Virus record (IMG/VR): IMGVR_UViG_3300028196_000007
Location: 22,140-86,139 of that record
Length of the DNA: 64,000 nt
Source: a virus
Strand: one strand, 5' to 3'
Shown here: piece after piece, positions 6,997 to 12,582 of the stretch
How the letters are laid out: every line of letters starts with the position of its first letter
How positions within the stretch are numbered: the stretch's first letter is position 1
Notes under the pieces: model-generated
Seen by the model: only the letters and a program-made list of their open reading frames with translations
The model's database searches: none
What the model was told of the DNA's origin: nothing
Position numbers and translations under genes: made by a program

Positions 6997-8346
6997 TTAG
7001 TCATCAAGTTCTTCGAACCTCTTTTTCATTTCTTTTCTTAAATATTCTTGATGGTTACTCATCTGAGTTGTTAGCTCTTTACCTGTAACTGAGTTTTCAT
7101 CAAATATGTTAAAGTTACCGTTGTTTGTATTTATCTGACTTGGAAAAGTTATACCATCAGGCCCAAATCTATTTTTGATAACATGTATTCTACCTGTGCC
7201 TCCAACTTTATCTTCTATCTTTCTAGATAATGACATTACAAAATCTGCTGTCATAATCTTTGAATATGATTCTGCAATCTTGTCTGCCTGGATTACATCT
7301 TCCTGAAGTGCAGATCTGTTTGCTTGTGATGCTGTCCAAACTGGCACATCTAAAGTACCTGCAAGACCTCTTAGTTCTTCATAAATATTACCTAGCTCTA
7401 ACCTATAGTCTTTTTGTCCGCCGTTACCTCTTAATAAATCTGCATAATCCAAAATTACCATATCAGGTTCTTTACCTAGCATTCTGTACCTTTCGACATG
7501 AGAAGCTATTGTTGATATAGCAGCTGTTTTTGTTGGATAGTATTTTACAATTAAATTACCTGGTATCTTTTCAACTGTTTCCTTTACAGAATCGATATTA
7601 TATTTAAGCTCTTGGTTTGCAATTCCTGTTATAACTGAATCGTATCTTAATCCAACATAAGCTTCGTTTAATTCGAGTGTATAGTGTAGTACATTCTTAC
7701 CTTGTTTGATAACATTTGCACCTAAGTTAACAAGCAGAAACGATTTACCAATTCCAGCTGGTGCAACAACAACTCCAAGCTCGCCTTTACCTAACCCGCC
7801 GTCCATAAGATTATCAATCACATCCCAGCCTGTAGGTAATATGTGTCTTGTTGCTTGGTTATATCTTTCTTCTACCATTGCAACGTAATCATGGCCTACA
7901 TTTCTTTCTGTACCTGCTGTCATTGCAGCATCAACCTTAGCTTTTATTGCGTCATATTTTCCTGATTTTAGTAATTCGACAGAGTCAATTATTGCATTCT
8001 TTAAAACTTTATTTTTACAAAAGTCCAATGTTTGCTTCATTACAAAATCTAGGTCTTGTGAGTCTACATATTTAAAAGTGTCCTTTACGTTAGCAACTAT
8101 ACTTTTCTTAAACACATCGTCAGTAATTTCAGATATCTTTACCTTTAATACCTCTGCTGTTGGCTGAGATTTATATTCCTTAAAATATTCTTTTATAACT
8201 GAAACCAAAAATTGATTTGATTCATTCTCAAAATATTCAGGTTGAAGTATATCGTCAATCTGTTGAAGAAACTGTTTGTCTTTTAGTAGACATGTTATAA
8301 TTTTTATCTGGAATGTATAACCAAACTCGCTTAATCTATCACTCAT
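6997..8346 (-). CDS. DnaB/gp41-like replicative helicase
   Basis: PTGW, APAGIGKS Walker A, ILDYADL, WTASQANR, KNRFG. Confidence 0.95.
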   Translation of the reverse strand: MSDRLSEFGYTFQIKIITCLLKDKQFLQQIDDILQPEYFENESNQFLVSVIKEYFKEYKSQPTAEVLKVKISEITDDVFKKSIVANVKDTFKYVDSQDLDFVMKQTLDFCKNKVLKNAIIDSVELLKSGKYDAIKAKVDAAMTAGTERNVGHDYVAMVEERYNQATRHILPTGWDVIDNLMDGGLGKGELGVVVAPAGIGKSFLLVNLGANVIKQGKNVLHYTLELNEAYVGLRYDSVITGIANQELKYNIDSVKETVEKIPGNLIVKYYPTKTAAISTIASHVERYRMLGKEPDMVILDYADLLRGNGGQKDYRLELGNIYEELRGLAGTLDVPVWTASQANRSALQEDVIQADKIAESYSKIMTADFVMSLSRKIEDKVGGTGRIHVIKNRFGPDGITFPSQINTNNGNFNIFDENSVTGKELTTQMSNHQEYLRKEMKKRFEELDD

Positions 8347-9385
8347 AACTTTTTGATGCCATTGCTTCTAGGTGAGAAAAACATGTTTTTAGCCAAAGGT
8401 CTGGATTTCTAATTGCAGAGTTTGTCTTATCCTCTAACATGAGTTTCTGGAATTTATACTTTACTAATCTATTTATAGGTTTTCTAACTGCATCAATTAT
8501 TCCTGATTTTATACTACCAGGAATGTCAACGTTGCTTAGTTGCATCAAATCATAGTTTAACCTTATCATATCTTCACTATTTTTAATATCTGATATTACT
8601 TTTGAAGTGTCGTCTAAATCTTTTACATGACTAATCATTTCGTCCAAAGTAAGTTTTTTATCTTCAAATAATATAGGAAGTTTTTTCTTTAATGTCTTTA
8701 CACCTACACCTCTTATACCAGGAATATTATCCGATGCATCACCTTTCATAGTTCTATAAAGCAAGAAGTTGTGAGCAGGTATTTCAAAGTCATCATTTAC
8801 TGTTTCTTTAAAATAGTATTTCTTTTTAGTAGGTGACCAAACTTGTACTCTATCATCAACAAGTTGTAGAAAGTCTTTGTCAGTTGACATTATATAGAAG
8901 TGACTTTCAGGATAAACTTGTTGTGACAAGTACGCCATAGCATCATCAGCTTCTATGTTTTCTGGTGCTATCACCGTAATTGGTAGAGTGTCAAGATACT
9001 GAGTTAATCTACGAATTTGATTTTTCATAGATATACTTTCATCTTCTTGATTGTGGAAGGAGTCTAGACGGGTTAACCGCTTTCTAACTTTTCTGTTTGC
9101 TTTGTACTCGGGAAAGAGTTTTCGCCTTTTACTAGAACCACCTTTACCATCAAAACATACAATAACTCTTGTAGGCTTGATGTTTTTTATTGCGTAACCA
9201 ATAGACTGCAGAAAACCCGTCATCCCTCCAATATGTATACCGTCTTCGTTCATACTAGGGTTGACGGCAAATGCCCTAATAAATGTGTTTAATCCATCAA
9301 TCACGAGTATTCTATCGTCTGGTGACTGATTTACTGAATCATCTTTTTTTAGATTTTTCAGGATTTCTATATAACTTTGTTTCAT
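8339..9385 (-). CDS. 5'-3' exonuclease / flap nuclease (T4 RNase H, PolA-N like)
   Basis: IDGLN, FDGKG, YKANR, EADD, STDKDFLQL, GDASDNIPGIRGVGVKT. Confidence 0.95.
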   Translation of the reverse strand: MKQSYIEILKNLKKDDSVNQSPDDRILVIDGLNTFIRAFAVNPSMNEDGIHIGGMTGFLQSIGYAIKNIKPTRVIVCFDGKGGSSKRRKLFPEYKANRKVRKRLTRLDSFHNQEDESISMKNQIRRLTQYLDTLPITVIAPENIEADDAMAYLSQQVYPESHFYIMSTDKDFLQLVDDRVQVWSPTKKKYYFKETVNDDFEIPAHNFLLYRTMKGDASDNIPGIRGVGVKTLKKKLPILFEDKKLTLDEMISHVKDLDDTSKVISDIKNSEDMIRLNYDLMQLSNVDIPGSIKSGIIDAVRKPINRLVKYKFQKLMLEDKTNSAIRNPDLWLKTCFSHLEAMASKSYE

Positions 9386-9390
9386 ATATC

Positions 9391-9420
9391 TAATATAATA
9401 AAAATATCCGACATATAAAA
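9391..9420 (-). promoter_or_regulatory. Class B promoter motif (probably leaderless transcript)
   Basis: TTTTATATGTCGGATATTTTTATTATATTA; TATATT ends 6 nt before ATG 9385. Confidence 0.75.
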
Positions 9421-9424
9421 ATAA

Positions 9425-9442
9425 TTAACGTACTAAGTAGGC
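9425..9442. repeat. 18-bp inverted repeat, arm downstream of hsp20
   Basis: TTAACGTACTAAGTAGGC is the exact reverse complement of 9916-9933. Confidence 0.95.
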
Positions 9443-9448
9443 TGTTTG

Positions 9449-9883
9449 TTATTTTATTTCTATAAACTTGGCTTTTGCCGTTTCGAATTTTGGAACTGTG
9501 ATTTGTAATAAACCATTTTTCATTTCTGCATCCAGACTTGTTAAGTCAAAGTCCGGACTGACCTTCCATCCCATATCAAAACTACGTCTTGCAATTCCTC
9601 TATGGATATAAGTTGGTGCTTCTTTATTTGATGGGTTTGATTCGACAGTAGGTTTTTTGTAGGTAACCTTTAAAGTGTTTCCTTCTACTAAAACGTGTAT
9701 GTCGTCTTTTTCCAATCCAACACATGCGATATCAAAGCATAGTACTTCGTTGTCAACAAATACGTCAACCGGATAATCAGGCTTTGTATCCATTGCTGAA
9801 CCAAATCCTACATTTGTGTCGAAAAAATTTTTGAATAATAAATCGGTAGAGAAGAGTCTCTCACCTAATAAGTGTCTTGTCAT
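9449..9883 (-). CDS. Small heat shock protein (Hsp20/alpha-crystallin)
   Basis: YPVDV, YIHRGIARRSF, AEMKNGLLQITVPK, C-terminal IEIK (IxI). Confidence 0.95.
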   Translation of the reverse strand: MTRHLLGERLFSTDLLFKNFFDTNVGFGSAMDTKPDYPVDVFVDNEVLCFDIACVGLEKDDIHVLVEGNTLKVTYKKPTVESNPSNKEAPTYIHRGIARRSFDMGWKVSPDFDLTSLDAEMKNGLLQITVPKFETAKAKFIEIK

Positions 9884-9915
9884 AATAAATCTCCTTAAAT
9901 AATTTTAATGTTATC

Positions 9916-9933
9916 GCCTACTTAGTACGTTAA
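9916..9933. repeat. 18-bp inverted repeat, arm upstream of hsp20
   Basis: GCCTACTTAGTACGTTAA is the reverse complement of 9425-9442. Confidence 0.95.
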
Positions 9934-9937
9934 CATA

Positions 9938-9946
9938 TATAAATAT
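9938..9946 (-). promoter_or_regulatory. Class A promoter motif for hsp20
   Basis: ATATTTATA 4 nt upstream of the inverted-repeat arm. Confidence 0.65.
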
Positions 9947-9960
9947 ACAGCTGCTCAGTA

Positions 9961-10305
9961 TTATTTCTGATTCGCTATATGAAACATTTCTTCACCTGCT
10001 TTCCAGTAACTCCTTTTAGAGTCTTTGCATATTGCTATTGTATACTTAGACCTAACATCAGAAAGAGCTGCTTCAACAGCTTTACTATCTTTCAAGTCTC
10101 TAACTGTTATTGTAGTATACGTCTTAAATCTTCCTTTAGATTTAGATTTTTTACCATCATCTGACTCAGCTTGAGCTTTGTCTTTTATACCCTGGTCTAT
10201 ACCTCTTTGATAAGCTGATATTGATGTAGACTTTTTTGTTTTAGCCACTGGCTTTTGAGTGTCAACTGTTTGTTGGTTCTCTAAATGTACTGTCAATCTT
10301 TTCAT
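9961..10305 (-). CDS. Hypothetical basic protein
   Basis: 114-aa Lys-rich ORF on the coding strand; no motif recognised. Confidence 0.7.
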   Translation of the reverse strand: MKRLTVHLENQQTVDTQKPVAKTKKSTSISAYQRGIDQGIKDKAQAESDDGKKSKSKGRFKTYTTITVRDLKDSKAVEAALSDVRSKYTIAICKDSKRSYWKAGEEMFHIANQK

Positions 10306-10331
10306 ATAATTTCTTTTTTTAGTTTAAAAAT

Positions 10332-10427
10332 AAAGGCTCTTGGTTGGTTAAATAAATCTTTACCATAGTGAGGATTTTTAACTCTTAACATTCTGCACCA
10401 CGTGAAGGTGGCCTTTGTTAGCAGAAC
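10332..10427 (-). ncRNA. HDV/CPEB3-like self-cleaving ribozyme
   Basis: P1 GUUCUGC/GCAGAAU with G1-U wobble; P2 AAAGGCC/G(A)GCCUUU; P3 ACC/GGU; L3 UUCACGU; GU after P1; long P4; J4/2 CCAA. Confidence 0.85.
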
Positions 10428-10435
10428 TAGGTGCT

Positions 10436-10633
10436 TTACAACACCTTGATTACATCAGATTTTTTAACTTCAACAACCTCAAATTCTACTGAGTCATTGG
10501 CAAAGTCTTTATTTACTATTGCTTCTGCATCCGTAACTGATACCGCTGAAACTAAATAAGCTTCTTTTTTCCAAGTAACCTTAGTTCCGTTGTCGGTCGC
10601 TACTTTAACTCTTGCTAAATAATACATATCCAT
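10436..10633 (-). CDS. DUF4494-like small protein
   Basis: YYLARVK...KEAYLVSAVSVTDAEA...FEVVEVKKSDVIKV pattern resembles the Bacteroidota/phage DUF4494 family. Confidence 0.65.
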   Translation of the reverse strand: MDMYYLARVKVATDNGTKVTWKKEAYLVSAVSVTDAEAIVNKDFANDSVEFEVVEVKKSDVIKVL

Positions 10634-10644
10634 AATTTTCTCCT

Positions 10645-11184
10645 TTATTTTCTTATATATAATTTTTGATTTCTAATATACATTTTACCTGTAGGTATTT
10701 CTGTTAACTCTCTACCTAGCATATCGTATATTTTATTACTCATACAACAACTACATCCCATTTGACATTCATATTCTAATATTGCAGTTGGTACTCCAAT
10801 GTTGCTCATTAACATCCAAGCTTGTCCGTCCCATACTTGATTGAAACAACAACTCATTGTGTCAACATAACCTAATGAATCTGTTAAAGTATAAGATATA
10901 CACGTTGTTATTGTATCATAAGGCATTCCTGTGGTTGGATTGTAATTGTATACTAAGTGTGTACAAGGACCACTAAAACAACTGTCTTGACCCAACATTG
11001 TTTGACCACCATAAGTTACAGCATACAAAGGTGCCATAGTAGGCAAACTATTTCCAGTTACTGGTATTGCTATTTCTAATTGATATTGTGAGCCTATTGT
11101 GTAAGTCATGTTTGAATCACATAAGGTTTGTGCTTGTGTTTGTAGTCCAAGCGAAACTAATAATACTGCTAATAATCTTTTCAT
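10645..11184 (-). CDS. Secreted Cys-rich protein with T9SS C-terminal-domain-like tail
   Basis: Signal peptide MKRLLAVLLVSLGLQTQA|Q; C-terminus KIYDMLGRELTEIPTGKMYIRNQKLYIRK. Confidence 0.6.
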   Translation of the reverse strand: MKRLLAVLLVSLGLQTQAQTLCDSNMTYTIGSQYQLEIAIPVTGNSLPTMAPLYAVTYGGQTMLGQDSCFSGPCTHLVYNYNPTTGMPYDTITTCISYTLTDSLGYVDTMSCCFNQVWDGQAWMLMSNIGVPTAILEYECQMGCSCCMSNKIYDMLGRELTEIPTGKMYIRNQKLYIRK

Positions 11185-11228
11185 ATTTTATTCTTTTATT
11201 CTTTTTAAATTAATTTAATATAATAATA

Positions 11229-11448
11229 TCTATGCGGTTGGATTCGAACCAACAGTTTTTCAAGTACAAATTTGTAGGCTAAAAACTTAAAAAAAGCCTT
11301 ATAGTTCCTGTACTCTTGAGGAACTCGGGGTCGTTGTTAGCGCCACCATAAACCTTAGTAGCTACAAGTAGCTTATAAAGGTTGCGTATCTCCAAGCTAA
11401 TATATTCATGTTTTATATACATGTCAATTAGCATTCCGCCACGCATAG
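11229..11448 (-). ncRNA. 220-nt tRNA-like RNA with enlarged D loop and multi-hairpin central region
   Basis: Acceptor CUAUGCG/CGCAUAG plus discriminator A; U8G9; D stem GCG/CGC; perfect T arm GUUGG-UUCGAAU-CCAAC; no canonical anticodon arm. Confidence 0.8.
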
Positions 11449-11454
11449 TTATTA

Positions 11455-12582
11455 TTATCCTATTGGCACATCATCATTTCCGATTTCAATATCATCGATA
11501 CCTAAATCATCTGTTTTGTATGCCATAATCAATGTTTCGCAAATCTTGTTATATATTCTCTCTTTCCTTTCGGGGTCAGAAAGTACTAACTTTTCAAAGT
11601 CTTTTGATAAAAACTTTATTTCTTTGCCTGTTACATCATCAGTATAAGTATACCAAGAACCGCCTTGTTTAATAAGGCTGTAGTCTTTTAACACCTGAAG
11701 CCAACCACCAAAGTCATCGATGCCTGATTCGAAATAAATATTAAATTCTGCTTCTCGTAAAGGTGGTCCCATTCTGTTCTTGACAACCTTTGCCTTTGTT
11801 TTAATACCTATAACTTGTTCTTTACCGTTAACCTTAGCTTTAATCTGTCCTGCTGCTTTCAATCTTAATCTACAACTAGCATGAAACTGGATTGCTTTAC
11901 CGCCTGATGTAGTATATTTGTCACCAAACATAACACCTAGCTTTTCTCTTAGCTGATTTGTAAATATCAAACATACTCTTTCTCTACCAATTAACTGAGT
12001 AATTTTTCTCATACCTTTTGACAACACAATTGCTTTTGACGTAGCCCAACCTTCTTTGTCATAGTCTTGAGCCTGTTCAATTTTTGTTGTTGCTGCAGCT
12101 ACTGAGTCTACTGCAATTGATACCAATCTATTTTTGTCTGATTCTTTTACTTTTAAGATTATATTTTCAATAACCTCAAATATATCTTCTACAGCTTCGA
12201 GTTGAATATACAACATCTTAGAAATGTCCATTCCTATAGCAGTTAAAAACTCCTCATTCATGGCATTTTCTGTATCTATGTATACTGCAAGGCCTCCTTG
12301 CTTTTGCGTGTTAGCGAGTAGATGAGCTGCAATGAGTGATTTACCAGAAGCTTCCATTCCAGTAATTTCTGTAATTCTACCTACCGGTAAACCACCATTA
12401 GCTCTATTTGAAATAGCTAGGTCAAGTAAAGATGAACCTGTACTTATCCATTCAGTTAAGTCAGTTGGTGTTTCATCTGCACCATCTAGAAAGTATGCAA
12501 CTTTCATTCCTTTAAACTGTTTGTTTAATGAGTCAGCTAATACGCTGGCTAATTCATCTCGTTTTGTCTTATCCTTTGCCAT
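11455..12582 (-). CDS. recA: RecA/UvsX recombinase
   Basis: ISTGS, GGLPVGRITEITGMEASGKS, YIDTENA, VDSVAA, FTNQLR, TSGGKA, KNRMGPP. Confidence 0.95.
   Translation of the reverse strand: MAKDKTKRDELASVLADSLNKQFKGMKVAYFLDGADETPTDLTEWISTGSSLLDLAISNRANGGLPVGRITEITGMEASGKSLIAAHLLANTQKQGGLAVYIDTENAMNEEFLTAIGMDISKMLYIQLEAVEDIFEVIENIILKVKESDKNRLVSIAVDSVAAATTKIEQAQDYDKEGWATSKAIVLSKGMRKITQLIGRERVCLIFTNQLREKLGVMFGDKYTTSGGKAIQFHASCRLRLKAAGQIKAKVNGKEQVIGIKTKAKVVKNRMGPPLREAEFNIYFESGIDDFGGWLQVLKDYSLIKQGGSWYTYTDDVTGKEIKFLSKDFEKLVLSDPERKERIYNKICETLIMAYKTDDLGIDDIEIGNDDVPIG

Follow-up and report, generated by a model that had tools for sequence, protein, structure and literature searches.

A putative long-P4 HDV-like self-cleaving ribozyme in the replication gene region of uncultured marine phages

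Does a 96-nt element in the spacer between two small phage genes cut the RNA in which it is transcribed, and what would such a cut do to the message? The element lies in a 64-kb stretch of DNA (hereafter the window), part of an 86-kb IMG/VR virus record whose completeness is estimated at about half. Nearly all genes of the window are carried by the minus strand, and the element occupies 10332..10427 of that strand. The gene upstream of it encodes a 65-amino-acid DUF4494-like protein (10436..10633, minus strand), which matches Pfam PF14902 with 27.5 bits against a cut-off of 27 and aligns to positions 12–62 only of the 139-position DUF4494 profile. The downstream gene (9961..10305, minus strand) encodes a protein of 114 amino acids that belongs to no family, and its ATG is 26 nt past the element. 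We considered whether the 65-amino-acid ORF is the front half of a split DUF4494 gene and rejected this, because that form is kept at full length in at least 30 contigs and the 114-amino-acid ORF has no DUF4494 match. A preliminary description of this DNA had proposed a ribozyme resembling those of hepatitis delta virus (HDV) and CPEB3. Judged from sequence comparison, we think it probable, at roughly 0.8, that this is an HDV-like self-cleaving ribozyme of an uncultured marine phage, which cuts at its own 5′ edge and thereby punctuates the minus-strand message.

In the numbering used here, ribozyme position p corresponds to window coordinate 10428-p, and all elements of the fold are on the minus strand. 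From 10427 to 10332 the sequence reads as had been claimed, and every structural element was found where the preliminary description had placed it. The 5′ strand of P1, G1–C7 (10421..10427), pairs over 7 bp with positions 32–38 (10390..10396), and its first pair is the wobble G10427·U10390. J1/2 (10420-10417) is followed by P2, in which A12–C18 (10410..10416) pairs with positions 89 and 91–96 (10332..10339), leaving A90 (A10338) bulged. P3 has 3 bp (positions 19–21 with 29–31, that is, 10409-10407 with 10399-10397), and L3 comprises 7 nt (positions 22–28, 10406-10400). The putative P1.1 is one standard pair, C24 (C10404) with G39 (G10389), and no standard pair is possible between U23 and U40 beside it. 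J1/4 is G39 U40 (10388..10389), both letters of which are invariant in alignment A6; presumably, L3 and J1/4 are like those of the CPEB3 ribozyme. P4 spans 10347..10382 and joins 10382-10373 with 10358-10347 (positions 46–55 with 70–73 and 76–81) in the order 6 bp, 2-nt bulge and 4 bp, under a loop of 14 nt. J4/2 is long, with three nucleotides separating P4 from C85 (C10343), the proposed catalytic cytosine, which stands four nucleotides before the 3′ strand of P2 (P2′). The predicted cut, between 10428 and 10427, falls 8 nt past the stop codon of the DUF4494-like ORF (10438-10436), again as described.

A search with HDV descriptors had been suggested as a check, and a hand-written descriptor was applied to both strands of the window. 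It asked for a 7-bp P1 with the G·U pair, a 3-bp P3, an L3 of 7–8 nt, the motif C-N-A-A and a P2 of 6–7 bp with at most one bulge; a C at the third L3 position, pairing with the G of J1/4, was also required. The flagged site was the sole match in 64 kb, and any match at all was seen in 1 of 100 dinucleotide shuffles, in agreement with the earlier proposal. The single-sequence minimum free energy, calculated with pseudoknots left out of the model, is ordinary (z = -0.62; 49 of 200 shuffles fold as well), which is expected because the fold is a pseudoknot, and it gives no support.

At gathering thresholds, Rfam models had no match in the window, and the HDV families RF00094, RF00622, RF02682, RF01787 and RF01788 all remained below them. 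The best permissive match on 10250-10500 was RF02682 (23.0 bits against a cut-off of 44; E = 0.022), with model position 1 on G10427 and with P1, P3 and L3 aligned. The spacing of C-N-A-A and P2′ is also that of the RF02682 consensus, whereas P4 was not aligned. RF01787 reached 15.8 bits against a cut-off of 37 and aligned the P3/L3 core, and RF00622, like the other HDV families, had no match at E≤10 on this interval. Nothing apart from one tmRNA was called at gathering thresholds in 20 related loci. A tmRNA gene (L029:2087-2476; RF00023, 75.7 bits) is present on a 72.6-kb viral contig which also carries a distant DUF4494 homologue.

Homologues were collected by several routes. Contigs encoding the 65-amino-acid protein comprised 35 viral loci; the element stands behind the gene in 21 of these and is absent from 13 more distant ones, and one locus reaches the contig edge. 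An exact 20-base pattern taken from the P3-L3-J1/4 region was found in 28 viral contigs, 8 of them new, and a looser gapped pattern gave at least 119 metagenome stretches. Two models were used, R1 with P1, P3 and P4 (P2 not included) and R2 with P2, P3 and P4 (P1 not included), to which the window ribozyme scores 120.5 and 115.3 bits, respectively. R1 has one match in the full 86-kb record. Of 43 sources, 29 gave a match, with a single one on each contig, and the best score apart from these is 14.3 bits; R1 found nothing in the 13 distant DUF4494 loci. Among the matches listed, 48 of 80 and 21 of 39 metagenome loci were R1 matches. The merged set from viral contigs and the metagenome matches listed holds 60 distinct ribozyme sequences and 72 distinct contexts, each made of 100 nt, the ribozyme and 100 nt. 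The viral and metagenome collections share some contigs, and the 60 sequences are related, with 55 close variants and one divergent group of five (L091, L108, L120, L125 and L133).

To count pairs, the 60 sequences were aligned to R2 and the full pseudoknotted structure was then scored; R2 was used because MAFFT misplaced one P4 gap in the five divergent rows. Standard pairs fill 99.6% of 1675 cells, and pairing falls to 32.6–45.0% when partners are slid by 1–3 columns. Three unpaired P1 cells belong to a single row, L120, which R2 set 2 nt out of register. Compensatory changes were observed in 15 of 28 pairs, namely five in P1, five of the seven in P2 and five of the ten in P4; in P1, G1·U38 is kept in 60 of 60 sequences and five of the other six pairs covary. 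For four measures (the percentage of paired cells, the counts of covarying pairs and of covarying cells, and the covariation score), none of 500 shuffles came up to the observed value. For a fifth measure, the number of further standard pair types, the value was 17 versus 22.2 in shuffles, and all 500 shuffles were at least as high.

An alignment fitted to a model leans to that model. The covariation of P2 is independent of R1, because P2 is not part of R1 and the R1 alignment has the same P2 variants; P1 covaries though it lies outside R2, and an anchor-based count without alignment gave the same P2 pair types. In MAFFT alignments of 22 sequences (18 distinct) and 30 sequences (20 distinct), 99.6% of cells were paired in each case, with seven and eight compensatory pairs, respectively. 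The deepest covariation comes largely from the divergent group of five.

Invariant in all 60 sequences are G1·U38, the three P3 pairs, C24-G39, C85, A87 and A88. Since P3 and P1.1 are invariant, no covariation is possible in them and their backing is conservation. C85 can be singled out as the functional cytosine because it is invariant while its neighbors vary: the nucleotide after it (C10342) may be C, U or A, and C82 (C10346) is deleted in six sequences. Within the P4 loop (10359-10372, minus strand), the 5′ half (columns 55–60) is nearly invariant and the 3′ half drifts. On these comparative grounds, the evidence shows that the RNA forms the nested double pseudoknot of P1, P2, P3 and P4, probably with P1.1, and that this fold is under selection. 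The proposed helix order, with its 7-bp P1, G1·U wobble and 3-bp P3, survives comparison with relatives, the P2 with a bulged purine and the long P4 hold up as well, and the cytosine named as catalytic proves to be the invariant one.

The place of the ribozyme in these phages is a variable region between recA and a 5′-3′ exonuclease gene, with one copy per phage. In the window, these anchor genes lie at 11455-12582 (recA) and 8339-9385 (exonuclease, followed by dnaB), and small genes are inserted between them on both sides of the ribozyme. Judged by RecA, the closest cultured relative is Microcystis phage Mel-JY01 (54% identity), which has the same gene order with a recA-exonuclease gap of just 68 nt, and which has no R1 match and no ribozyme. 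A blastn search of 9300-11500 against the cultured-phage collection gave no match. The exact 20-base pattern had 0 matches in a set of one genome per prokaryote species, so neither a host nor a prophage was found there.

Further features were noted in the same gap. An ORF of 179 amino acids (10645-11184, minus strand) has a signal-peptide-like start, is cysteine-rich and has no Pfam, PHROG or NCBIfam match; that it ends in a T9SS sorting domain was a guess which neither Pfam nor NCBIfam confirmed. The stretch 11229-11448 (minus strand) contains a nominal ORF of 55 amino acids (11279-11446), and its end resembles the T arm and acceptor strand of a tRNA; ARAGORN called no tRNA in the window. A promoter-like motif shared by some relatives ahead of the ribozyme occurs eight times in the window versus 8.6 expected, which is not above chance.

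What precedes the predicted cut falls into a few types. Among the 72 contexts, a DUF4494 gene is upstream in 23, with its stop codon 8–11 nt ahead of the cut; recA is upstream in 10, 53 nt ahead of the cut and with a hairpin; in 10, gene and cut are separated by an uncatalogued RNA, structured and about 85 nt long; other ORFs are found in 18; and 11 have no callable upstream ORF. Nine of the 18 other ORFs, of about six kinds, have the stop codon 0–5 nt ahead of the cut, and in three contexts of this class the stop codon abuts G1. Altogether, the cut lies 0–11 nt past a stop codon in 32 of 72 contexts (23 DUF4494 and nine other ORFs), representing at least seven unrelated upstream genes, and these statistics rest on few context types, with DUF4494 (23) and recA (10) dominating. 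A DUF4494 gene is no fixed partner of the ribozyme, which also follows recA and at least six other genes. In the simplest relatives, recA is followed by a hairpin of 18 bp that stops 1 nt short of the cut; then come the ribozyme, a 65-nt spacer and the 5′-3′ exonuclease gene. No tRNA was found before the cut in any related locus.

In 43 of 71 contexts, a helix of 5 bp or more terminates no further than 2 nt from the cut; among positions picked at random in these loci, this was so for 206 of 1309. The independent cases are few because the DUF4494 and recA types dominate the 43. In the window, RNAfold of the 60 nt upstream of the cut predicted a 7-bp hairpin (10429..10446, minus strand), which holds the DUF4494 stop codon in its 4-nt loop and whose stem ends 1 nt before the cut. 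The relatives L052, L044 and L129 keep this stem through a G-C to A-U change. By eye, six letters of the ribozyme at 10405-10410 (the end of P2, the 5′ strand of P3 and the start of L3) recur in the 3′ strand of the hairpin, so that the coding 5′ strand could pair with either copy. The hairpin may serve as a decoy and so prevent misfolding of the ribozyme by the coding sequence.

The RNA of about 85 nt was located on the minus strand in seven loci (L098:842-929, L114:144-231, L116:1260-1347, L135:1594-1681, L156:1677-1764, L056:5668-5752 and L074:1164-1248) and in three others (L014:422-506, L180:3447-3531 and L054:1339-1423). It contains a covarying hairpin of 4–5 bp with an invariant 12-nt loop, which is all that RNAalifold recovered, and an outer stem. 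This closing stem ends 1–2 nt before the cut in the 10 contexts, in much the way that the acceptor stem of a tRNA borders a theta ribozyme. The RNA has no Rfam match and is not a tRNA according to ARAGORN, and its loop motif is missing from the window.

The downstream side of the ribozyme is variable. An ORF starts within 35 nt in 33 of the 72 contexts and within 36–90 nt in 29. In L059, L065 and L153, a tRNA-Ala starts 3–5 nt after the last P2 base, an arrangement that is the reverse of theta and in which the ribozyme would be a tRNA 5′ leader. In L091, L108 and L133, a terminator-like hairpin with a T-run begins 7–10 nt past the ribozyme, which here apparently is at the end of a transcription unit and not before a gene. 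Such variation bears on the possibility that the HDV fold has been kept and the cutting lost, leaving a compact structured element such as a protein-binding site, an exonuclease block or an aid to translation of the gene that follows. The downstream partner may be a gene, a tRNA or a terminator, and no one function suits them all. It is true that covariation speaks to the fold and not to catalysis, and that the P4 loop is conserved in its 5′ half although the HDV core makes no use of it. This loop is complementary to downstream Shine-Dalgarno-like stretches in L070, L075 and L111, and according to a review the R2 and L1Tc HDV-like ribozymes may help translation too (PMC6765202). However, the loop has no such complementarity in the window, whose downstream gene is without a Shine-Dalgarno-like stretch, and residues that only catalysis would call for (G1·U, C85, A87 and A88) stay the same in all 60 sequences, among neighbors that drift. 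We consider a fold that no longer cuts to be unlikely.

The released ribozyme could also itself be the product, as a trans-acting small RNA of about 100–130 nt ending at a terminator or a U-rich run. The three loci with a terminator-like hairpin would suit such a product, as would the conserved P4 loop motif and the 8 nt after P2, which average 65% T. But a terminator-like site occurs within 80 nt in just 4 of 69 contexts (one of them inside a gene), and the window has none behind its ribozyme; together with the closely following ORFs and tRNAs, this makes a small-RNA product quite unlikely. The T-rich run after P2 would also fit an element that is chiefly a transcription terminator or attenuator, in which the hairpin before the cut and the U-rich P1 strand stop RNA polymerase, and in eight contexts the upstream hairpin and the first P1 bases do conform to a simple terminator pattern. 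Yet the window's own site is not called terminator-like, and termination would leave unexplained the 15 covarying pairs of a pseudoknotted 96-nt fold as well as the invariant C85 and G1·U; we regard it as highly improbable.

HDV ribozymes cut so that a 2′,3′-cyclic phosphate is left on the upstream RNA and a 5′-OH on the downstream RNA. By this chemistry, the window ribozyme, transcribed within a long minus-strand message, would cleave itself between 10428 and 10427, with C10343 acting as general acid and a divalent ion bound. The upstream message would then end 8 nt past the DUF4494 stop codon in a cyclic phosphate, with the 7-bp hairpin at its new 3′ end, and the downstream RNA would begin with the 5′-OH of G10427. 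Such a cut would uncouple the upstream message from the 114-amino-acid gene here, and from a gene, tRNA or terminator in relatives. Because only the upstream side (gene end, hairpin or structured RNA) is constant, we read the element as punctuation of the message, by which the upstream RNA would gain an exact 3′ end. A C-to-U change abolishes cleavage of a phage HDV ribozyme (PMC13635239; PMC10879173). For hammerhead and twister ribozymes located near phage genes, a part in the processing of polycistronic messages has been suggested but is not settled (PMC6765202).

The stretch is present in many sea-water DNA runs and in six RNA-library runs. Logan contigs of four of the latter (X13, X20, X21 and X22), in which DNA carry-over is possible, were compared over 9400-11600. 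One X20 contig spans 10045-10407 and one X13 contig spans 10493-10933, leaving at 10408-10492 a gap in contig cover that speaks neither for nor against cleavage. The cut is not bridged by any contig, and the runs all stop at different places. Over 10806-11175, the contigs have a word depth far above that of the flanks and several sequence variants, which may come from relatives in other organisms.

A wider role is conceivable, which we put forward tentatively and with the odds against it: the ribozyme may be a portable maker of 3′ ends, set behind any RNA that needs a precise end without host enzymes, whether a message cut 0–11 nt past its stop codon, a message capped by a hairpin or the RNA of about 85 nt.

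How does this ribozyme compare with known systems? HDV-like ribozymes in phages are already known, and by its sequence features the present family is a long-P4 marine subfamily of them. The literature that we searched describes neither this family nor an HDV-like ribozyme of marine phages that stands behind recA; supplementary lists (PMC10879173; Weinberg et al. 2015) may hold members. Among the closest known systems are the theta ribozymes of Caudoviricetes (Kienbeck et al. 2024; PMC10879173), minimal forms located at tRNA 3′ ends, which likewise are phage-borne HDV-like cores, sense to their neighbors and in non-coding DNA. That report also gives 526 further hits without tRNA association and of unknown function, and places more than 80% of hits in gut phages. 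A minimal ribozyme of locus L102 has a P3/L3/J1/4 core identical in every letter to that of the window family, and its G1 is, by our own count, 1 nt past a tRNA 3′ end in a tRNA array, the published theta arrangement. This phage-like array (L102:1593-5254) has 12 tRNA matches.

The differences are equally clear. A theta ribozyme has by definition a P4 of minimal size and cuts no more than 5 nt from the 3′ end of a tRNA, and the window ribozyme shows neither feature; its P4 has 10 bp and a 14-nt loop. In the published motif the catalytic C is first in J4/2, whereas J4/2 here is three nucleotides longer before it. The published hits are mostly from gut phages (PMC10879173), and theta ribozymes cut at tRNA 3′ ends and have the tRNA before them; the window family is marine, would cut behind protein genes, a hairpin or the RNA of about 85 nt, and has the tRNA after it in three relatives. 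Another candidate family, GC-rich and HDV-like with the same P3/L3 core, was seen in L086, L085, L112, L121, L122, L147, L157 and L184, including three copies in one 4.4-kb contig (L086). Rfam gave no positive control in this respect, because just tRNAs were called in 10 loci with other HDV-like candidates.

Three other systems offer partial parallels. The HDV-F-prausnitzii ribozyme (RF02682) is likewise full-size with a P4 and, as noted above, aligns over P1, P3, L3 and the C-N-A-A spacing; it stands upstream of glmM in a bacterium (PMC6765202), whereas the window ribozyme lies in a phage replication-gene region. An HDV-like ribozyme with a P4 and a crystal structure was reported from Ackermannviridae (Luo et al. 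2026; PMC13635239). It was shown to cleave at the expected site, is inactivated by a change of its catalytic C to U and belongs to a phage that is described as infecting Enterobacteriaceae. The 5′-end ribozymes of the R2 and L1Tc retrotransposons free the downstream RNA from a longer co-transcript and stay on it as a 5′ leader (PMC6765202); those are eukaryotic retroelements, and no reverse transcriptase or mobile element was seen here.

Few functions have been assigned to self-cleaving ribozymes in bacteria and phages, and theta ribozymes at tRNA 3′ ends in gut phages are the best-argued phage case. The present family would add a full-size HDV-like group that current Rfam models miss, which argues for wider HDV covariance models. 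It is common in sea-water phage DNA, with 69 of 119 metagenome loci among the matches listed and 28 viral contigs that share its core pattern. Its fixed place in the replication and recombination block, around which genes are swapped, offers a natural series on the effect of a ribozyme cut on neighboring messages. If the tentative role as a maker of 3′ ends is true, the theta principle, in which tRNA 3′ ends are made by a ribozyme, would apply to messages too, and to small phage RNAs of a new class.
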